A DNA stretch of 64,000 nt from an uncultured Gammaproteobacteria bacterium (GTDB lineage: Bacteria; Patescibacteriota; Patescibacteriia; UBA11705; JABHMO01), in assembly GCA_964590105.1 (NCBI GenBank), contig CAZPYM010000001.1, positions 431,782 to 495,781 of the forward strand, given 5' to 3'. Below, one piece after another: positions 3,363-64,000 of this stretch (the first letter of the stretch is position 1; every line of letters begins with the position of its first letter). The position numbers and the translations under genes are program-made. Below the pieces are notes generated by a model. That model was not told the DNA's origin. It was given only the letters and a program-made list of their open reading frames with translations, and did not search any database.

Positions 3363-3372
3363 AAATATAGGT

Positions 3373-3427
3373 AGGGACAGTAGGGGCAGAATTATATTCT
3401 GCCCCTACTGTCCCTGCCCCTACTGTC
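3373..3427. repeat. perfect 20-bp inverted repeat (AGGGACAGTAGGGGCAGAAT / ATTCTGCCCCTACTGTCCCT, 3-nt loop) plus a third direct half-copy GCCCCTACTGTC, immediately 5-prime of the mutL start
   Basis: Read directly: 3373-3392 is the exact reverse complement of 3396-3415; the loop TAT and flanking bases spell TATAAT on the minus strand; 3416-3427 repeats 3401-3412. Confidence 0.8.
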
Positions 3428-3454
3428 ACTACCTTATCATATCTAAAAATTTTT

Positions 3455-3538: not shown

Positions 3539-4951
3539 TCACAGCTTGATAATCCTGACTCCGAGGCCGGACAAACCTTCTTTCAACGAACTGAACAGCA
3601 TGGAAGCAAGCTCCCCGCCGGCCTGATTCGCCTTCGCGACTTCGTACACCGGCTTGTAGGCAGGATTCATGGCGGCCAGTTGCTCCAGCCTTTCAAAAAT
3701 CCGGTCAAAGACTGACGACAGGCGCTCCGTAAAGGCGTACTTGGCCGCCTCCTCGGCGAGAGCTGGACTCTCTTCCACCAGGGCAAGAATGCCTGCCGTG
3801 GAACAGTCGTCCGAAGTGAAGTATTCCTTCACCCGCGTCTCAATCGCCCGCGCTTCTTCGATCTTGGCGCGCTCCGCCTCGAACCGCGCCTGCAGATCAG
3901 TGAAGTACCCCCGATCGTCGCCCGCGCCGGCCAGCGCCGAAAGCTGTGCCCTCATCTGCGGCAACATTTCATCCTGCACCGCGAACGTGGCTACCGCCTT
4001 GCGGGGAAATGCCATGAGCGCATCCATGTCTCCGGTTGCCCAGGACGGCGGATTCACCGCCCGGAGCATTTCCATTTGCACCCGGACAATCTGCGCCTTG
4101 GTCTCATCCGAAAAGTCTGCGAGATCGCCCTCATAGTCGCCGCTCTCCATGGTCAGGTCCAGCTGATTCAGCGCAATGGCCTGGCGCAGAAAGCCAAGCA
4201 CCATGGCAAAGAAAAACTGATCCTGTTCCGCGCTCCGACCGATCGATTCGATTGTCTCCGCGAGCGAATGCAGGAGGCTGGGCATCCGATTGTTCACCAC
4301 CATTGCCAAACCGACGGCAGTGTCCGTATCCCGTGTTTCATTCATAAAATCGGCAATGAGATCAACAGCTTCCATCCTGATTTCGTCAGGACAGCAGCTG
4401 AAATCTCCATTTGCCTTGATCAACGCGTTGAAGCTTTCCTTGAAACCGGCTCGGCGTTCTACGAACGCCAAATACTTCAACGCTTCAGCGCTGCGCTCCG
4501 CGGACGGGCCGAGAGTACCGAGCGCCTTTTCCAAATCTGATCTGACCTGCGGCACAATACCGCTCAATTTCTCGAACACCGACTCCAGGATTACCTGTCC
4601 CAGGCACCTGTTGTGAATGAGCGGAACAACCATTGCGGCCACTCTTTGCTTGAGTTCTTCCGGCGCTGACACGAAATCGCCGTTCGCTTCACACAGATCC
4701 GCGAATTCGACGTACTGTTCCACGAACGCCGCAAGCTCGATCAGCCGATCGCGATTTTCTGCGCCGGCTTCAGCCGGTTTCCGCATTTCATCCAGCATAA
4801 ACGGCAGCAGGCCTTCGTCATGCTGACCCATCATTGCAGTGAAAATGCCTTCCCCATTGGCCAAATCATTTTGCAACTTTTCCATTTTCATTGCCAAGCA
4901 CTTTTTCAAGGCATGACAATCACGACACCTCGAATCTTCTTTCCTGATCAT
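3539..4951 (-). CDS. hypothetical protein, 470 aa, alpha-helical with internal repeats (ANGDF...PEEL / ANGDF...PDEI); GC-rich foreign-looking cassette between mutL and mutS
   Basis: Long ORF, about 57-60% GC against about 43% flanks; many spurious overlapping plus-strand ORFs, typical of GC-rich coding; perfect SD AAGGAGG 5 nt upstream of ATG (plus 4957-4963); no recognisable domain. Confidence 0.7.
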   Translation of the reverse strand: MIRKEDSRCRDCHALKKCLAMKMEKLQNDLANGEGIFTAMMGQHDEGLLPFMLDEMRKPAEAGAENRDRLIELAAFVEQYVEFADLCEANGDFVSAPEELKQRVAAMVVPLIHNRCLGQVILESVFEKLSGIVPQVRSDLEKALGTLGPSAERSAEALKYLAFVERRAGFKESFNALIKANGDFSCCPDEIRMEAVDLIADFMNETRDTDTAVGLAMVVNNRMPSLLHSLAETIESIGRSAEQDQFFFAMVLGFLRQAIALNQLDLTMESGDYEGDLADFSDETKAQIVRVQMEMLRAVNPPSWATGDMDALMAFPRKAVATFAVQDEMLPQMRAQLSALAGAGDDRGYFTDLQARFEAERAKIEEARAIETRVKEYFTSDDCSTAGILALVEESPALAEEAAKYAFTERLSSVFDRIFERLEQLAAMNPAYKPVYEVAKANQAGGELASMLFSSLKEGLSGLGVRIIKL

Positions 4952-5011
4952 GCGCGCCTCCTTGTTGTTGTTGCGCCAATCGACAAAACTGAAAAGAACA
5001 CTAGAAATAAG

Positions 5012-11259: not shown

Positions 11260-11280
11260 AAATTTGGAGATTAGAGATTA

Positions 11281-11395
11281 GAGTTTGGGAATTAAAAGTT
11301 AAAAAGTGAAAGGTGAAAACCGAAATTCAGTTTACTCAATTAACTAGATTAACTTAATTAACTAGCTTAACTTGATTAACTTTACCACAAACCAC
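11281..11395. repeat. low-complexity word repeats (GAGATTAGAGATTAGAG; AAAAGTTAAAAAGTGAAAGGTGAAAACC; TTAACTAGATTAACTTAATTAACTAGCTTAACTTGATTAAC) upstream of alaS
   Basis: Read directly; the two halves are partially complementary. Confidence 0.55.
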
Positions 11396-17999: not shown

Positions 18000-18170
18000 G
18001 TGAATAAAACGAAAATCACAAATTCCGAACTACAAATCACAAACAATAAAGTATAAATAACAAATTACAATCAACTTTACTATCAATCAAGTTAGATTCT
18101 GACGCCTTTGGATTCATTTGAAATTTGTAATTTGTTTGTAATTTGGAATCTGTACTTTGTGATTTACAGT
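18000..18170. repeat. intergenic heptamer-word repeats in inverted orientation (ACAAATCACAAACAA...AACAAATTACAATCAA at 18020-18070, then TTTGTAATTTGTTTGTAATTTGG at 18121-18150), a potential long imperfect hairpin between pilB and pilC
   Basis: Read directly; 18121-18145 is the reverse complement of the ACAAATTACAAA words upstream. Confidence 0.65.
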
Positions 18171-18171
18171 T

Positions 18172-23364: not shown

Positions 23365-23399
23365 ATAAGTTTATTAGTAAATAAATGATGAGTAGTGAA

Positions 23400-23455
23400 A
23401 AAATTACAAACCACAAACAACAAATCACAGGCAAATCACGAATTACAAACAAAAT
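23400..23455. repeat. heptamer-word repeat (AAATTACAAACCACAAACAACAAATCACAGGCAAATCACGAATTACAAACAAA) upstream of pilM
   Basis: Read directly; reverse-orientation copy of the TTTGTAA family. Confidence 0.65.
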
Positions 23456-23663
23456 GAAGATGTGAAATAAAATAAACGTTAGGAGACCTAAGAAGATAGA
23501 AAAGAAAAGACGGCTACCCCAATTTCTAATTTCAAATTTCTAGTTTCGCTTCTTCCTCCCTTACTCTTCTCACCCATTTCCATTCTTATTCGTTCATACT
23601 GATATTCCACAAAATTTATTATATCATTTTTCAACTAAAAAAGGAATTATTTATACACACCAA

Positions 23664-39172: not shown

Positions 39173-39241
39173 ATTTACAGATTACAGATCAATACGGAAG
39201 TACGGATATTTAATCAGTATATCAGTACAATCAGTAATCAT

Positions 39242-40916: not shown

Positions 40917-41036
40917 ATTATTTTTAAGTTAAAAGTTTCCGCCATTGGCGGATGCGCCTTTGGCACAAAAAGTGAAAAGCGATATTAGCGGTTTTTCGCA
41001 CCTACCACTTCTATCACTTCTTTCTCTTTTTATTTA

Positions 41037-43218: not shown

Positions 43219-43350
43219 AAATTCAAAGCACAAAACTCAAAGCTCAAAGAACAAAAAAAACTTAAAGTGTAAAATTCAAAATATAAAAACAACCTTGGAA
43301 TTTTAAATTTTTAATTTTAGATTTCCTTTGGACTTTAAATTTTGTACTTT
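43205..43350. repeat. intergenic imperfect palindrome built from A-rich heptamer words (CAAAGCACAAAACTCAAAGCTCAAAGAAC...TTAAAGTGTAAAATTCAAA // TTTGGACTTTAAATTTTGTACTTTGGGCTTT)
   Basis: Read directly: the second arm is approximately the reverse complement of the first. Confidence 0.6.
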
Positions 43351-43355
43351 GGGCT

Positions 43356-44363
43356 TTATTTAGTAGCTAATACAGACCGCTTGTACAATTCAAGATTATC
43401 AAGCGCAATGCCCGTTCCCTTGGCCACGCAAAGCAGAGCGTCATCAGCCACATAAACCGGCACGCCGACCGCGCGCGAAACCAATTGATCAATATCGCGG
43501 AGCAAACTGCTACCACCGGACATAATTATTCCTTTGTCAATAATATCAGCTGACAATTCCGGTGGTGTCTGATGTAAAACTTCTTTTACCGCGTCAATTA
43601 TTCCTTGCAAATCTCTTTGCAAAGCTTCCGTCACGTCATTGGCGCTGATGCTGATAGTTTTTGGTAAACCGGAAATCATGTCGCGGCCGCGAATGTCTAT
43701 CACTGCCGGCCCCTCTGAATACATAGCTGAACCGATTTCTATTTTAATATCTTCAGATGTTCTCTCGCCAATAGCCAGATTATATTTTCGCCGGATGTAT
43801 TCAGCGATTGAAGCGTCAAATTTATTTCCGCCGATCCGAACCGAGGCAGAAGCAACTATACCGCCGAGAGAAATAACCGCAATTTCAGACGTGCCGCCGC
43901 CGATATCAATAATCATATGTCCGGAAGCGCTGCCAATCGGAATATTGGCACCGATAGCCGCGGCAATCGGTTCTTTAATAATGTAAGCGGCTCTGGCGCC
44001 GGCCGCAATGGTCGCGTCAATCACTGATCTGCGCTCCACGGAAGTAATGCCGGCCGGTACGGCGACCATAACTTCCGGTCTGAACAACTTGATGCCGCCA
44101 ACTGCTTTATTAATAAAATAACGAAGCATTGCTTCGGTTGTTTTATAATCAGCGATCACGCCGTCTTTGAGCGGCCGGCTGGCGACAATTGTATCCGGCG
44201 TGCGGCCAATCATTTCTTTGGCTTCATCTCCCACAGCCATAATTTTTTTGTCAGTCATTGAAATGGCCACAACAGACGGCTCATTAATCACAATCCCTCT
44301 CTTCGGCAGATGAACCAGAGTATAAGTAGTGCCAAGATCAATTCCAATTTTCCGGATAAACAT
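43356..44363 (-). CDS. mreB: rod shape-determining protein MreB (start corrected to MFIRKIGIDLG)
   Basis: IGIDLGTTYTLV, actin-fold motifs, 336 aa. Confidence 0.88.
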   Translation of the reverse strand: MFIRKIGIDLGTTYTLVHLPKRGIVINEPSVVAISMTDKKIMAVGDEAKEMIGRTPDTIVASRPLKDGVIADYKTTEAMLRYFINKAVGGIKLFRPEVMVAVPAGITSVERRSVIDATIAAGARAAYIIKEPIAAAIGANIPIGSASGHMIIDIGGGTSEIAVISLGGIVASASVRIGGNKFDASIAEYIRRKYNLAIGERTSEDIKIEIGSAMYSEGPAVIDIRGRDMISGLPKTISISANDVTEALQRDLQGIIDAVKEVLHQTPPELSADIIDKGIIMSGGSSLLRDIDQLVSRAVGVPVYVADDALLCVAKGTGIALDNLELYKRSVLATK

Positions 44364-44369
44364 AATCAA

Positions 44370-44520
44370 GTTAAAAGTGTAAAGTTCAAAGTTAAAGGTA
44401 AATTCCAGCGCAAGTTTTCCTGCTACAACAATCACTGCCTGTTTTTACTTTCAACTTCTTATTTATACTCTTCCTTTTAATTTTTACCTTTTAACTTTTA
44501 ATTCTCCAATTTTCCAATCA
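44370..44520. repeat. intergenic imperfect palindrome of heptamer/octamer words (GTTAAAAGTGTAAAGTTCAAAGTTAAAGGTAAATT ... TTTTAATTTTTACCTTTTAACTTTTAATTCTCC)
   Basis: Read directly. Confidence 0.6.
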
Positions 44521-47131: not shown

Positions 47132-47156
47132 CTGGCGATAATTAATCGCCCAATTT

Positions 47157-47196
47157 TCAAAAAGCTGCATCTTCACAGAGCAGCTTTTTCTTTTAC
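47157..47196. terminator. bidirectional intrinsic terminator between speH (+) and cysS (-)
   Basis: AAAAAGCTGC-atcttcacagag-GCAGCTTTTT with A-tract and T-tract on both sides. Confidence 0.65.
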
Positions 47197-48575
47197 CTTT
47201 TTTTTCTTAGTTTACTGTTGTCGGCCATATCATCTATAATCCAGCCGGCTTCTTCTATCTGCCGGCGAAATTCATCCGCCTTTTCCCATTTTTTGTTTGC
47301 TCTGGCTTTGTTTCTCTCCTGCAAAAGCGCTTCAATCTCCGCGGGAATATCCACCTGCTCTTCGACCGCTTTTTCCAGGCCCAAACCCAATATTTTATCG
47401 AATTCAATGAGTGTGGCTCGTTTATCAAAATCTGAAATCGGCGCCTTGAAAACTTCCCAGGCCACGGCCACGGCCTGCGGCATAGACAAGTCATTATTCA
47501 CATATTCCACGAATCTCTTTAATAACCCCTGATCAACCTGACCGACTTGTTTTCCTAAATCAATAAATTTATTTTTCATTTTTTCCCAAATATGGCTGGC
47601 ATTTTCTATTGCCTCCCAACTAAAATTCAACTTGCTGCGATAATGAGATGACAAGCAGAAAAAACGGTAAACAACAGGATCAAAACCTTTTTGCTCAAAT
47701 GTTTCCAGCGTCACAAAATTGCCTTCTGATTTTGCCATTTTTTCTTCATCATTAACAATTAAAAATTCTCCATGCAGCCAGTAACGAACAAATTGTTTGC
47801 CGGTCGCCGCTTCGCTCTGCGCGATTTCATTTGTATGATGCACCGAAACATGATCAATGCCGCCGGCATGAATATCAATTGTTTCACCGCAATATTTCAT
47901 GCTCATGGCCGAACATTCTAGGTGCCAGCCGGGAAATCCAACGCCCCAGGGACTTTCCCACTCTTGTTGCCTTTTGCCGGGAGTAGCGGAAAATTTCCAA
48001 AGCGCAAAATCAGTTGGATTTTTTTTCTCAATATTTGTTTCCACGCGCGCGCCTTCTTCCTGGCCTTCGAGATTGAGTCTAGCCAGGTCTGCGTAACTGG
48101 GAAACTTTGACGTATCAAAATATATTCCGTCAGAAATTTTATATGTATATCCTTTTTTCTCCAATGTCTTTACTAATTCAATCTGTTCATTGATATGAGC
48201 AGTCGCCCGAGCCCAGATATCCGGTGCCAAGATATTTAATTCATCAAGATCATTCTTAAATGCTTCCGTATAAAATTCCGCGATTTCTCTGGCGGTTTTC
48301 ATTTCCAGACGAGCGCTCTTTTCAATTTTGTCTTCACCTTCATCGCTGTCACTGGTCAAATGTCCGACATCAGTTATGTTGATCACATGCTTAACCTTAA
48401 AATCATTGAACAACAATGCCCTTTTTAAGATATCTTCAAAAATATATGTCCGCAAATTTCCAATATGCGCAAAATCATAAACCGTTGGTCCGCAAGCATA
48501 AAAAGTCACCTCTGCCGGATTCAGAGGCTTGAATTCTTCAATTTCTCTTGAGAGCGTATTGAATAGTTTCAGCAT
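47193..48575 (-). CDS. cysS: cysteine--tRNA ligase
   Basis: HIGN (HIGH-like) and KMSKS motifs, Zn-binding Cys residues, 460 aa. Confidence 0.88.
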   Translation of the reverse strand: MLKLFNTLSREIEEFKPLNPAEVTFYACGPTVYDFAHIGNLRTYIFEDILKRALLFNDFKVKHVINITDVGHLTSDSDEGEDKIEKSARLEMKTAREIAEFYTEAFKNDLDELNILAPDIWARATAHINEQIELVKTLEKKGYTYKISDGIYFDTSKFPSYADLARLNLEGQEEGARVETNIEKKNPTDFALWKFSATPGKRQQEWESPWGVGFPGWHLECSAMSMKYCGETIDIHAGGIDHVSVHHTNEIAQSEAATGKQFVRYWLHGEFLIVNDEEKMAKSEGNFVTLETFEQKGFDPVVYRFFCLSSHYRSKLNFSWEAIENASHIWEKMKNKFIDLGKQVGQVDQGLLKRFVEYVNNDLSMPQAVAVAWEVFKAPISDFDKRATLIEFDKILGLGLEKAVEEQVDIPAEIEALLQERNKARANKKWEKADEFRRQIEEAGWIIDDMADNSKLRKKR

Positions 48576-48595
48576 AGCCTTTCCCTAAATGTAAA

Positions 48596-48660
48596 TTCAC
48601 CAATTCGCTAATTCACTAATTCGCCAATTCACACTTCAATCACACCTCACAACTTTAACT
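48596..48660. repeat. octamer-word tandem repeat (NNNAATTC: GTAAATTC ACCAATTC GCTAATTC ACTAATTC GCCAATTC ACACTTC...)
   Basis: Read directly; similar words at 39811-39850 and 44480-44520. Confidence 0.6.
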
Positions 48661-48667
48661 TATTTTC

Positions 48668-56457: not shown

Positions 56458-56503
56458 TTTTAGAAACCGGGAACAGGAAATTGGAAATCAGGGTTTAGCG
56501 CTG

Positions 56504-56545
56504 TTACTTTCTACCCTAGTTTCCAGTTTCAAGTTTCCAATTTCG
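56504..56545. repeat. heptamer tandem repeat, family AGTTTCY (CCCTAGTTTCCAGTTTCAAGTTTCCAATTTCGTTTTA) between grpE and dnaK
   Basis: Near-copy of 25709-25745. Confidence 0.7.
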
Positions 56546-56547
56546 TT

Positions 56548-59840: not shown

Positions 59841-59900
59841 TTTATTGTTATTTGTTATTTGTTTGTAATTTGTTATTTGTCATTTGTAATTTTCATGTTT
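59841..59900. repeat. heptamer tandem repeat, family TTTGTAA (TTGTTATTTGTTATTTGTTTGTAATTTGTTATTTGTCATTTGTAATTTT)
   Basis: Read directly. Confidence 0.7.
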
Positions 59901-60962: not shown

Positions 60963-62996
60963 TTAAAACCCCGCCAGCGTAAAAACATCGGCAGTGGTGG
61001 CGATAATTTCAACTTTTCCATCGCCGTCTGTGTCTGAAGTTACAACTTTGACACCGGCCCGCAAATTTTTGTCAAAAGCGAAAAAATCAGGACCATCCGC
61101 CTTACCGTTTTTATCAAAAGACTTAACGTGCGGTCCGCCGCCATTGCCCGGCCCCGTGATAATTTCATCCACGCCGTCGCCGTCAATATCGCCGGCCGCC
61201 ACATTTACCCCGCCACGAAATTTCGGATCATAGGCGAAAAATCCCGGATTAATACAACGTCCGTCAGGCGCGAAAACGCGCACATGAGGGCCCCCGCCAA
61301 AACCAGCGCCGGTTACTATTTCATACCAACCGTCGCCATCCAAATCAGCAATGGTAACATTCACGCCGCCGCGAAATTCCGGGCCATAGGCAAAAAATCC
61401 CGGATTAATCAGTTTGCCACTGCTGTTAAAAATTCTGACTTGCGGTCCGCCACCTTTTTCCGTGCCGGTAATTATTTCCATTGTGCCGTTATTATCCAGA
61501 TCACCGACAGTAATATTAATACCACTATCGTACTTTTCTGTATATGGAAAAAAGCTGGTTATTAATTCGCCTTTTGAATTATAAATTTTTACTTGATTAA
61601 TGTCCGCCACTAGAATTTCTTTTTGCCCATCATTATTTATGTCTTTCTCAATTATCTGACTTCCGCCTTTGTAATTTTCATTGTAGGCAAAAAATCCGGT
61701 TCTAGCCACATGGCCGAACTCGTTGTAAACTTTGGCAAACGAGCCATTGACATAAGTGGCATTATAAATATTTTCAATCGGCCGAAGCAGGACAAGGCCG
61801 TCATTGGCCGCCAAATCCACATAATCGACAAAAGAGCCGTCATTGGTCAGCGCGTCCTGCGTACCATGCAATTTTTCATATTCGCCGCCAAGATCAAGTC
61901 CATATTCTTTGTTCGTGGAATTAACCAGAATCAAGCCGTTTTTAAAATCCCGGCGCCACAAGCCCTCGGCATATGTTTTGGAATTATTAAGAACATTTGT
62001 TGCTTGCCCGGCCGGCTCGCCAAGATATGCTTCATACTCGTCATACCACCATATTTCCCGATGGCTCTGATCGCCATTATCAAAGCTGTAATAACCGTTA
62101 TCAAGAAGCGCGCTCGCCAGACCAAAACGCATTTTTTTGTAATCCTGACTATTTCCTGAGTTATTTACGTTGGCATTAAGAATGCTGAGCGATGGATGCG
62201 CGCCATTACTATTTACAAATGAATATTTTTTCAGAGTTTCAGCCCAACCCTTGGCTGGAAAATGTTCATACAACACTCCATTTAAATATTTGTAATAATA
62301 GTCGCCGCCATTACCCATTATCAAAGCGTCTTCACCCAAGAGCATGCGGGTATTGCCAAGCAAGACTTCCATGCCTTCGCGCCACTTATTATTAATTTCA
62401 CCGATTGGTTCTGCCACGCCGTTCTGATCAAGGTCAATATTATAAGATTCCATAAAGGAAAGATCATCCCAGACATTATCATAAAATACTCCATCCCAAT
62501 AACCGCTGGCCATTAATTCATTTTTCACAAACAACGGCAAAACATCCTGCCAGCGCTTACCGTTTTTAATGGGCGCGTTTGAAGTCACATTAAGCATCGG
62601 ATTTGGCGCCCACCAAGCGACTTTCTTCCCGCCTGAATCTTTTAGCCACCAGCTCTCATCAATCTGCTGATATAATTTTTGTCGGAGCGTCCCTGCGAGC
62701 GTACCCGAGTCTCCCCGGATTTCTTCAGACGCAATGTAAGCCAAAAGTTTTACATCAGGATTTAATTTTTTAATTAATTTCAAACTTTCCGGCGAATAGG
62801 TCTGCACTTCCATGGCAATGATAAGCACATCCCATTTGGCTAATTCTTTTGCTTCTTCCGTTGTAATATCCCAGCGGAAAAATAGATTCGCCAGCTTTGG
62901 ATATTGATTGTGATTCAAATCAGCTCCCGTGGTGATAAACAAGGGAGTTATAATTAAAAATAAAATAATTGTTGTGTATAAAAACTTTTTACGCAT
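60963..62996 (-). CDS. secreted protein with an N-terminal glycoside-hydrolase-like (TIM-barrel-like) domain and C-terminal FG-GAP/VCBS repeats
   Basis: Signal peptide; five or more repeats of D(L/I)D(N/G)(N/D)G..EI(I/V)TG.G.GGGP(Q/H)V(R/K).F. Confidence 0.6.
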   Translation of the reverse strand: MRKKFLYTTIILFLIITPLFITTGADLNHNQYPKLANLFFRWDITTEEAKELAKWDVLIIAMEVQTYSPESLKLIKKLNPDVKLLAYIASEEIRGDSGTLAGTLRQKLYQQIDESWWLKDSGGKKVAWWAPNPMLNVTSNAPIKNGKRWQDVLPLFVKNELMASGYWDGVFYDNVWDDLSFMESYNIDLDQNGVAEPIGEINNKWREGMEVLLGNTRMLLGEDALIMGNGGDYYYKYLNGVLYEHFPAKGWAETLKKYSFVNSNGAHPSLSILNANVNNSGNSQDYKKMRFGLASALLDNGYYSFDNGDQSHREIWWYDEYEAYLGEPAGQATNVLNNSKTYAEGLWRRDFKNGLILVNSTNKEYGLDLGGEYEKLHGTQDALTNDGSFVDYVDLAANDGLVLLRPIENIYNATYVNGSFAKVYNEFGHVARTGFFAYNENYKGGSQIIEKDINNDGQKEILVADINQVKIYNSKGELITSFFPYTEKYDSGINITVGDLDNNGTMEIITGTEKGGGPQVRIFNSSGKLINPGFFAYGPEFRGGVNVTIADLDGDGWYEIVTGAGFGGGPHVRVFAPDGRCINPGFFAYDPKFRGGVNVAAGDIDGDGVDEIITGPGNGGGPHVKSFDKNGKADGPDFFAFDKNLRAGVKVVTSDTDGDGKVEIIATTADVFTLAGF

Positions 62997-63000
62997 TCAA

Positions 63001-63060
63001 CGTTTATTAAGCTCAAAGTTACAAGCTCAAAGTTCAAAGTAAATTTAAAATTTCAAATAT
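63001..63060. repeat. A-rich heptamer words (GCTCAAAGTTACAAGCTCAAAGTTCAAAGTAAATTTAAAA), left arm of inverted repeats flanking the four-helix-bundle gene
   Basis: The reverse complement of 63505-63565 gives CCAAGTCCAAAGCTCAAAGTTCAAAAATCAAAGTAAACTTCAAG..., sharing the GCTCAAAGTTCAAA and CAAAGTAAA words. Confidence 0.6.
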
Positions 63061-63070
63061 AAAACTTCAA

Positions 63071-63493
63071 CTAATCACAAGGAGAATCCTCCCTACTGAC
63101 GTCTTCGTGCTTGTCAACTGCTGTTTTAATTCTTGTTCCTTCCCTATCATGCACTATTGAAGCGAAAATTTTCGTTAATTCAAATGCTTCTTGAGCTGAA
63201 GCCATTCTCTCTGTTTCCAAAATGCTATCTTCAGGAACGCATAGCAATCGCAACCACAATCTGCTTTCCTTAGCTTCTTTCCGACAAAGCTTTAACCTAT
63301 GTAATTCGTCTTTCTTGCTTATTGCTTCGCAAGCTTCTATATAATTGGCGGCTACTGAACCAGATGATCTAATCACCTGTTTGCCATCTTCAATGTTTGA
63401 GGTAGTTTTAGGTATCTGGCAAACATGCGCTCTAACCCTTTTGGCAAAATTAAAAGTTCTTTCTTCTAGATCATACTTTTTGTCTTGAAGCAT
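63071..63493 (-). CDS. four-helix-bundle protein of the family usually encoded inside 23S rRNA intervening sequences
   Basis: DLEERTFNFAKRV...SSGSVAANYIEA...SKKDELHRLKLCRKEAKESRLWLRL resembles the recalled family consensus (DLxxR.F.FA..V......P..........QL.RSATSIGANIAEG...S.KDF...L.IA.GE..ET..WL). Confidence 0.65.
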   Translation of the reverse strand: MLQDKKYDLEERTFNFAKRVRAHVCQIPKTTSNIEDGKQVIRSSGSVAANYIEACEAISKKDELHRLKLCRKEAKESRLWLRLLCVPEDSILETERMASAQEAFELTKIFASIVHDREGTRIKTAVDKHEDVSREDSPCD

Positions 63494-63499
63494 ATGCCA

Positions 63500-63565
63500 G
63501 TATTTAAATTTTTAACTTTAGACTTGAAGTTTACTTTGATTTTTGAACTTTGAGCTTTGGACTTG
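63500..63565. repeat. T-rich heptamer words (TTTAAATTTTTAACTTTAGACTTGAAGTTTACTTTGATTTTTGAACTTTGAGCTTTGGACTTGG), right arm of the inverted repeats
   Basis: Approximately the reverse complement of 63001-63060. Confidence 0.6.
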
Positions 63566-63566
63566 G

Positions 63567-64000
63567 TTAACCGAGCTTCACTCCGCCTTTATCCAAAACG
63601 CCTTCATAACAGCGCATCAACCGTTGATAATATTCGCTTGAACAATTTTTGTGTTCAACCGCCTGCCGCGCGTTTCTGCCCAATTGTTCGAGGCTATCAG
63701 TTTCATTGAAATGTTGGCTAATTTTTGCCCGCAAATCCTTTAGATTACCGGCCTCAAAATGCCAGCCGTTTACTCCGTCGGCAATCATTTCGTTCAGCCC
63801 ACCCAAATTGGCGGCCAGCACCGGTTTACCAAGCGCCATTGCTTCGATGGCCAGCATCGGATAATTTTCATACCATTCCGACGGCATGACTACAAATCTG
63901 GCATTCTTTATACAAGCAAAAAGTTCCTGGTCATATTTTGCACCCAAATATTCAACATTTTTTATTTGCTTTCTGGCAATAAAATTTTCAATCAGCTTTT
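63567..64000 (-). CDS. family 1 glycosyltransferase, C-terminal part (gene continues beyond the window end)
   Basis: EWYENYPMLAIEAMALGKPVLAANLGGLNEMI is a GT4 C-terminal motif; the reading frame stays open to position 64000. Confidence 0.6.
   Translation of the reverse strand, partial: KLIENFIARKQIKNVEYLGAKYDQELFACIKNARFVVMPSEWYENYPMLAIEAMALGKPVLAANLGGLNEMIADGVNGWHFEAGNLKDLRAKISQHFNETDSLEQLGRNARQAVEHKNCSSEYYQRLMRCYEGVLDKGGVKLG

Follow-up and report, generated by a model that had tools for sequence, protein, structure and literature searches.

Near the end of the 64-kb Patescibacteria stretch analyzed here (the whole stretch is referred to as the window), a 140-amino-acid (aa) open reading frame (ORF) at 63071..63493 on the - strand encodes a four-helix-bundle protein and is enclosed by two complementary spacers. 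On the sense strand, the 5′ arm (63494..63566, - strand) is A-rich, carries CAAAG-type words at 7-nucleotide (nt) spacing, and begins where the TAA stop codon (63567-63569) ends the upstream gene, a GT4 glycosyltransferase gene of which the window holds the 3′ end (63567..64000, - strand; 409 aa in contig L002). The 3′ arm (62997..63070, - strand) is T-rich, with CTTTG words complementary to the 5′ arm, and its end lies ~10 nt ahead of the ATG (62996-62994) of the downstream gene, which encodes a 677-aa GHL15/FG-GAP protein (60963..62996, - strand) and served as the query for orthologous junctions. All three genes are on the - strand, and the spacers measure 73 nt to the glycosyltransferase gene and 74 nt to the GHL15/FG-GAP gene. 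The original prediction had described a gene of the kind found in 23S ribosomal RNA (rRNA) intervening sequences (IVS), placed between glycosyltransferase and FG-GAP genes with no rRNA at the locus, and this setting was borne out: no rRNA, tRNA, or Rfam family was found anywhere in the 64-kb window, and no similarity to E. coli 23S rRNA was seen in the window or in the 93 loci examined. Ten contigs assembled from separately listed metagenome samples and sequencing runs (JGI, ENA, and Logan assemblies) carry the 570-nt module without a single base difference, and it is therefore not an assembly artifact. Several contigs of the window organism (L001, L004, L005, and L008-L010) end within ~100-250 nt of the module, which would fit repeated arms or hairpins breaking assemblies.

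The product does belong to the 23S rRNA IVS four-helix-bundle family, as had been supposed, with profile matches above the curated cutoffs both for PF05635 (23S_rRNA_IVP; E 2.9e-10, 40.8 bits against a cutoff of 33.8) and for TIGR02436 ("four helix bundle protein"; E 3.5e-16, 59.4 bits against a cutoff of 24). A profile of 23 relatives matched PDB entry 2RLD, an S23 ribosomal protein family member (E 3.4e-14), and the AlphaFold monomer model (pLDDT 90.3) has four long helices; searched with Foldseek, this model returned 2RLD and 2GSC (Xcc0516) on top (TM to target 0.73-0.78). A homopentameric ring is counted among the features of the PF05635/TIGR02436 (S23p) family. Free-standing TIGR02436 genes are annotated by NCBI (structure 2RLD is BT_0352), and the window gene is one such gene. 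The closest non-identical protein shares 73% identity, the C-terminal tail is common to the closest relatives (P0001-P0006), and the best matches of both the ORF and the neighbor gene are annotated as Patescibacteria, Parcubacteria, or Falkowbacteria. A profile search yielded 9,619 clusters (50% identity) at E ≤ 1e-3, 186 of them reaching 1e-30. The PADLOC defense-system models gave no family match for the protein at E ≤ 0.01. With a ratio of nonsynonymous to synonymous substitution rates (dN/dS) of 0.04-0.25, the ORF is under purifying selection.

The next Foldseek hits were to Avd, a protein of diversity-generating retroelements (4DWL and 8UB7 chain E, TM ~0.74), which has a four-helix-bundle fold of the same superfamily and raises the reading that the window gene is the accessory gene of such an element. 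However, no reverse-transcriptase domain occurs among the called genes over ~6.6 kb upstream and 3.3 kb downstream, no template/variable repeat pair emerged from a repeat scan of 62900-63700, no similarity to Avd was detectable in the sequence at E ≤ 0.01, and the protein is near neutral (isoelectric point 6.4) rather than basic, so that this reading appears very improbable.

Complementarity of the two spacers is extensive. A gapless inverted repeat of 55 nt (63009-63063 / 63503-63557) is 71% complementary, with a 23-nt core at 87% (63016-63038 / 63542-63564), and the RNAduplex energy of the full flanks (63494-63566 against 62997-63070) was -35.4 kcal/mol, compared to -20.0 ± 3.8 for dinucleotide shuffles, of which 0/1000 were as good. 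Among 55 window genes, the flank-to-flank duplex of this gene ranked first (-38.4, against -32.9 for the runner-up and a median of -18.5). The runner-up, gene 47193-48575 with flanks 47132-47192 and 48576-48667 (-32.9 kcal/mol), has a G-U-rich and irregular pairing that is therefore probably due to chance. When the region was folded as RNA (574 nt), the long-range stem was contained in the minimum-energy structure, although the whole fold differed from shuffles by a z of only -1.76. The predicted imperfect inverted repeats able to form a long stem are thus present; the arms had been put at about 50 bp, and while long pairing arms do exist, their true extent is the entire 73-74-nt spacer on either side. 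Could such pairing be a chance complementarity of AT-rich, low-complexity spacers? These spacers are indeed repetitive and contain 23-29% G+C, the top-ranked flanks have the lowest G+C among the 55 window genes, and the modest z of the whole module would also suit this explanation. It is contradicted by the shuffles, none of which reached the duplex energy, by the first rank among 55 genes, and by the relatives described below, which show the same arrangement against a neighbor-gene control and whose arms covary. We rejected this explanation and regard its probability as negligible.

To place the window gene within its family, one genome per species was scanned, giving 594 relatives, and the best 80 loci (53-69% protein identity) were analyzed. 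These were labeled as Patescibacteria, Planctomycetota, Verrucomicrobiota, Bacteroidota, Desulfobacterota, Gammaproteobacteria, Chlorobi, Nitrospirota, Acidobacteriota, and others, and none of the 80 is located in rRNA. With uniform ORF calling and a dinucleotide-shuffle z for the duplex between 100-nt flanks, the four-helix-bundle genes (n = 71) had a median flank z of -2.7 with 46% below -3, compared to a median of 0.03 with 3% below -3 for neighboring genes (n = 445; Mann-Whitney p = 6e-18). The high-scoring neighbors were two IS200/RAYT-like genes, one GxxExxY gene, four-helix-bundle paralogs, and genes abutting a cassette arm. When 150-nt flanks were folded together, at least 30 flank-to-flank pairs formed in 68 of 79 loci; in 56 of 59 loci the stem extended to the start region, coming within -15 nt of the ATG or entering the ORF. 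The innermost pair had a median position of +26, and the stem resumed at the stop codon. The distance from the neighbors' stop or start codons to the outermost pairs was not usable, as minimum-energy folds add spurious outer pairs into coding sequence. Co-orientation with the neighbors was the rule (upstream 58/62, downstream 60/65), with median gaps of 62 and 85 nt, and the units therefore occupy the spaces between cistrons in sense orientation. Across phyla, enclosure in a hairpin characterizes the family. One four-helix-bundle ORF (L014:4004-4372) is interrupted by an in-frame stop (…ANI*DGKQ…), for which a pseudogene, an error of sequencing, and stop-codon recoding are all candidate explanations.

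The arms are built on a common plan. Across the family, they have a 7-nt period (lag-7 self-match 0.445 upstream and 0.478 downstream, against ~0.25-0.3 at other lags), and 24 canonical cassettes from the family align almost gap-free with the consensus AAATnCGAAnnnCGAAATnCGAAATnCGAAACAAATTCAA-ATG-ACCGAAATACAAAATTCAAAAC...ORF...stop-TGTTTTGAAnATTTG..GAATTTGTTTCGGATTTCGAnATTCGAATTTCGGATTT. RNAalifold on these 24 gave short helices every 7 nt. On this structure, 95.8% of cells were paired, compared to 86.2 ± 1.0 in shuffles, and 35 two-sided changes were counted, compared to 11.8 ± 2.3, with 0/500 shuffles as high in either case; slid registers reached 60.6% paired at most. The two arms covary, and the variable base switches jointly in all repeats of both arms (CGAAA/TTTCG, CTAAA/TTTAG, and CCAAA/TTTGG; CAAAG/CTTTG in the window). 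This word class is independent of the protein clade, and a coevolution of protein and arm words was discarded as a candidate, identity within the CGAAA/CTAAA classes (0.635/0.662) being the same as between them (0.633). Aligned from the ATG in a fixed register, the 45-nt upstream arm shows 60% identity between taxa, compared to 40% for third positions of the ORF, 73% for first and second positions, and 33% expected from composition alone; because this exceeds both third positions and composition, the arm sequence is constrained beyond pairing alone. Read from the sequences, the first TAAAT of the arm often shares bases with the stop codon of the upstream gene, and the Shine-Dalgarno sequence or ATG of the next gene comes after the last ATTTA. 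The order of the arms, A-rich first, had been taken as a signal of orientation relative to transcription and was withdrawn, because a palindrome reads the same on both strands and only the co-orientation of the ORF counts. A mere intergenic style of this one genome was likewise rejected as the origin of the hairpin, as the same arm words and architecture surround relatives in other phyla.

The orthologous junction was then compared among three related genomes (L091, L092, and L093), which have in common the synteny radical-SAM, Wzy, methyltransferase, glycosyltransferase, glycosyltransferase, and GHL15. In L091 (neighbor protein 79% identical), the spacer between the glycosyltransferase and GHL15 genes is a 140-nt gene-less hairpin that is identical to the joined arms of the window at 101/145 positions (score 142 vs 56 ± 8), and the ORF junction falls at its apex. 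In L093 (72% identical), the stop and start codons are adjacent with no spacer. The presence of the element among close relatives is sporadic, with the ORF in the window, the hairpin only in L091, and neither in L093. The same junction in L092 (77%) is filled by an unrelated 72-aa ORF at 4792-5010 with no family match and with no evident hairpin. A second gene-less hairpin homologous to the joined arms lies within the window itself (43222-43362, - strand; 99/136 identical, score 137 vs 60.5 ± 8.0), where it occupies the spacer between an mreB-like gene and a glycosyltransferase gene (-39.6 kcal/mol, z -5.9). Elsewhere in the family, three consecutive spacers of L013 hold gene-less CGAAAT-type hairpins, each of which retains GAAACAAWTTCAA-ATG and ~10 A-rich codons of the ORF, so that by their sequence they look like cassettes minus the ORF body. 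A strict word-array scan of 667 kb counted 9 gene-less and 27 ORF-bearing hairpins; most of these gapped hairpins escape a gapless inverted-repeat scan of the 64-kb window. Matches of the solo hairpins in Rfam were limited to spurious ones to plant microRNA precursors, and an identity with a known RNA family was dismissed.

These comparisons bear on the reading that the gene is an ordinary resident of its host, neither mobile nor selfish, whose 5′ and 3′ untranslated regions pair to stabilize or regulate the mRNA. Such a reading would account for the strong purifying selection, for the apparent co-transcription with operons, and for the inheritance of the cassettes, since pairs at least 84% identical have their flanks in common and these flanks are no better conserved than the cassette, which indicates vertical inheritance. 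It does not sit well with the ORF being present, absent, or without any spacer at one orthologous junction among close relatives, nor with homologous gene-less hairpins at other sites or with the same packaging around an unrelated gene family (see below). In addition, cassette pairs with 77-80% DNA identity occur in bins of different phyla with unrelated flanks (for example, Aminicenantia/Zixibacteria and Pirellulales/Aminicenantia), and judging from these sequences such pairs are hard to explain without horizontal transfer, though bin labels can be wrong. We consider a resident gene quite improbable. With respect to vehicles, relatives of the gene occur on 17 plasmids, nearly all cyanobacterial and all below 60% identity (30-41% among those listed), and none were found in the viral collections INPHARED or IMG/VR.

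Taken together, with a probability of roughly 0.6, we read positions 62997-63566 (570 nt) as one discrete, IVS-like palindromic cassette in an operon spacer, drawn from a large multi-phylum family. The sense co-orientation, the lack of promoter- or terminator-like sites, and the exact stop-to-start filling suggest that the operon transcript carries the cassette; at the window cassette, a consensus scan turned up neither a promoter-like site on the sense strand nor a terminator-like one at the flanks. On this basis, having no recognizable promoter or terminator of its own, the cassette would be transcribed by read-through of the host operon. Once transcribed, the arms would pair as they do in 23S rRNA intervening sequences, which would bring the flanking cistrons together and bury the cassette's own start region. 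By analogy, the stem would be a probable processing site and RNase III substrate; among the ORFs of the 64-kb window, no RNase III signature motif was found. Cassettes would be acquired rarely, through horizontal transfer or insertion, and be inherited vertically thereafter, and loss of the ORF would leave solo hairpins resembling miniature inverted-repeat transposable elements (MITEs). The encoded protein probably binds its own arms, for self-regulation or propagation. This last step is a guess prompted by each ORF family having its own arm words, and it is a reasonable one because Avd binds a nucleic-acid enzyme and the RNA of that enzyme.

Several observations weigh against this reading. 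These could be grouped as follows: (i) the fold of the whole module is weak relative to shuffles, and in the minimum-energy structure of the window the 30 nt beside the AUG pair locally, which makes it less certain than for the canonical cassettes that the start region is buried. (ii) Duplex energy is equal for the sense and antisense strands, A.C mismatches outnumber G.U, and the sense strand shows no enrichment of wobble pairs; with neither a strand bias nor a wobble enrichment, there is no sign of selection as RNA rather than DNA. (iii) No transposase, integrase, or reverse transcriptase was found in or beside the window cassette, no near-identical copies at different sites were found in the sequences examined (the window copies are only ~73% alike), and no target-site duplication was recognized at the ends in the window, L011, L091, or the canonical cassettes. 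The terminal TAAAT...ATTTA is part of the repeat and gives no consistent duplication, and the empty site of L093 is too diverged to align. (iv) The 80 loci are the best-scoring relatives and no random sample of the family, and their phylum labels, taken from metagenome bins, could be in error for an individual contig. (v) Of four distant cyanobacterial members, one is strong, and the other three are weak or differently arranged. Mobility, which we infer from the presence and absence at one site and from the cross-phylum similarity, would therefore be rare or old. The original prediction of an IVS-like or MITE-like mobile module outside rRNA is supported, given the IVS-family protein, the long stem, the ORF present or absent at an orthologous hairpin, the gene-less homolog, and the recurrence across the family; no recent copies or target-site duplications were seen that would point to active mobility.

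The same observations give some room to a miniature transposon acting at the DNA level, in which a transposase from another locus would bind reiterated sites in the arms, these being the terminal inverted repeats, with the four-helix-bundle gene as cargo or accessory factor and no role for RNA folding. An arm sequence conserved beyond pairing, pairing without sense-strand bias, gene-less derivatives as in MITEs, and different ORF families with different arm words would all be expected of such an element. Yet no transposase was seen near any of the loci examined, no target-site duplication was recognized, and no recent copies were found. The sense co-orientation of ~93% and the exact stop-to-start filling suggest selection on the transcript, and a spacing of 7 bp is very tight for protein-binding sites. 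We consider a transposon of this kind unlikely. At one locus (L089:1150-3130), a canonical CTAAA-type cassette is immediately preceded by a tandem pair of IS200/RAYT-like genes, each accompanied by G+C-rich REP-type hairpins and by a duplicate of the 3′ end of a host gene; RAYT as the mobilizing enzyme was rejected, as these ordinary REP hairpins are GC-rich and unlike the 7-nt periodic arms.

How does the cassette compare to systems that are already described? The 23S IVS are defined by insertion in helix 9, 25, or 45 of the 23S rRNA gene, and the ORF-bearing IVS of Leptospira, Coxiella burnetii, Xanthomonas, and Brucella carry an S23p ORF, while short ORF-less IVS of the Salmonella type also exist. 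The Coxiella IVS is a 428-nt stem-loop with an S23p ORF, a poor Shine-Dalgarno sequence, and an RNase III cut within the stem (PMC4990558). The cassette has the same protein family (PF05635/TIGR02436), a comparable length (570 nt, against 428-444 nt in Coxiella; PMC4990558), an ORF in the loop of a stem formed by terminal inverted repeats, a weak or absent ribosome-binding site, and a sporadic presence among relatives. It resembles the 23S IVS in every architectural respect examined, but the host RNA is an operon spacer rather than a 23S helix, and the arms are 70-100 nt long, imperfect, and made of 7-nt periodic words. Being outside rRNA, the cassette is not itself a 23S IVS. With ERIC/IRU, Correia/NEMIS, RUP, and REPIN-RAYT elements it has in common hairpins of ~100-150 nt in intercistronic spacers and several diverged copies per genome, and with the RAYT/REP system in particular gene-less copies related to a gene-bearing copy inside the same repeats. 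Like MITEs and transposons, it has terminal inverted repeats, but no autonomous transposase-encoding partner was seen next to the cassettes examined. Unlike in MITEs and REPINs, the cassette gene is no transposase, and the arms are low-complexity 7-nt arrays conserved across phyla rather than unique terminal sequences. The likeness to Avd is one of fold, and the cassette differs in having no reverse transcriptase, no template/variable repeat, no sequence-level match, and a near-neutral rather than basic protein. In the literature searched, no description was found of hairpin enclosure, periodic arms, or gene-less derivatives for these genes. The recurrence of the packaging around relatives in many bacterial phyla suggests a widespread, cassette-like element, IVS-like outside rRNA, without a description in that literature.

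A second, unrelated gene family is packaged in the same way. In L030 (2900-3470), a GxxExxY gene (TIGR04256, PD-(D/E)XK; E 1.7e-42) lies between tctcgcaaacgcaaaggcgctaagtt and aactttgcgtctttgcgcctttgcgagaga, with a gene-less hairpin copy beside it. The flank test was extended to 80 metagenome loci (L095-L174), where GxxExxY genes (n = 61) had a median flank z of -4.4 with 62% below -3, compared to a median of -0.1 with 15% below -3 for their neighbors (n = 185; Mann-Whitney p = 6e-14). Their arms carry conserved GCAAAGG-type words with a 7-nt period (tctcccgcaaaggcgcaaaggcgctaagtt / aactttgcgcctttgcgcctttgcgggaga). GxxExxY nucleases, which are unrelated to the four-helix-bundle family, are thus packaged alike. 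A distant member of the four-helix-bundle family, on plasmid pNPUN01 of Nostoc punctiforme PCC 73102 (L176:1398-2053; 162595-163050), has GTCGGAG-type 7-nt periodic arms (-86.6 kcal/mol, z -9.5) and provides a version of the cassette in a culturable cyanobacterium. This gene adjoins tnsA, xisH, and xisI. On plasmids of Anabaena cylindrica and Pseudanabaena (L175:1045-3136; L178:1-3321), a four-helix-bundle gene is flanked by cas2 and cas1 or closely precedes cas1.

More tentatively, and at odds that we put somewhat below even, a wider superfamily may exist, made up of 7-nt periodic hairpin cassettes around at least two unrelated kinds of small gene, TIGR02436 or GxxExxY PD-(D/E)XK (TIGR04256). 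It would have spread horizontally over more than 10 phyla, reside both in operon spacers, from a stop codon to the following ribosome-binding site, and in rRNA helices (the latter being the IVS), and decay into gene-less MITE-like hairpins, and its proteins would recognize their own arms; the 23S IVS would be its rRNA-resident special case.

Other spacers of the window hold structures of a related appearance. A gene-less intercistronic hairpin at 56458..56547 (- strand) has the purine-rich arm first, a 7-nt period, and GGAAAC/TGGAAA words (z -5.9), and it resembles the cassette in style. Another of similar style at 18000..18171 (- strand; ACAAAT words, z -3.5) contains acaaatttcaaATGaatccaaa, which resembles the conserved start region of the canonical cassettes, and a weaker one at 44365..44517 (- strand; TTAAAAG/CAAAG words, z -2.8) is upstream of the mreB-like gene. 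Further window spacers carry 7-nt-style hairpins or arrays with other words. Low-complexity arrays with a 7-nt period at 11260-11330, 23365-23663, 39173-39241, 48576-48667, and 59850-59900 (words gattaga, gaaatt/tttgtaa, aattcgc, and ttgttat) have no obvious complementary partner and may be remnants of single arms. A near-perfect G+C-rich hairpin at 3363-3440 (cagtaggggcagaatataattctgcccctactg plus extensions; -44.8 kcal/mol, z -7.4) between two - strand genes differs in style from the A-rich hairpins, and a structured spacer at 40917-41036 (z -6.1) contains gtttccgccattggcggatgcgcctttggc. In other genomes, the junction after a histidine-kinase gene (…TFTLP…stop) is recurrently filled by solo hairpins, four-helix-bundle cassettes, or GxxExxY cassettes (L013:3700-5300 and L030:2880-4010, both with response-regulator genes next, and many of L095-L174) and may be an insertion hot spot.

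To our knowledge, no function or origin of the 23S IVS and their S23p ORF has been agreed upon since about 1990, and genes annotated as "four helix bundle protein" and "GxxExxY protein" rank with the most frequent small multi-copy genes of bacterial genomes that lack an explanation. There is a substantial chance that the cassette represents a broader, undescribed class. If these genes generally ride conserved, periodic hairpin cassettes from which gene-less hairpins also derive, the IVS elements would gain a natural reservoir outside rRNA, and an origin would be at hand for many intergenic hairpins in compact genomes, including those of this Patescibacteria window. The function of the protein would then become testable as the binding or processing of a nucleic-acid partner that is encoded on either side of its own gene.

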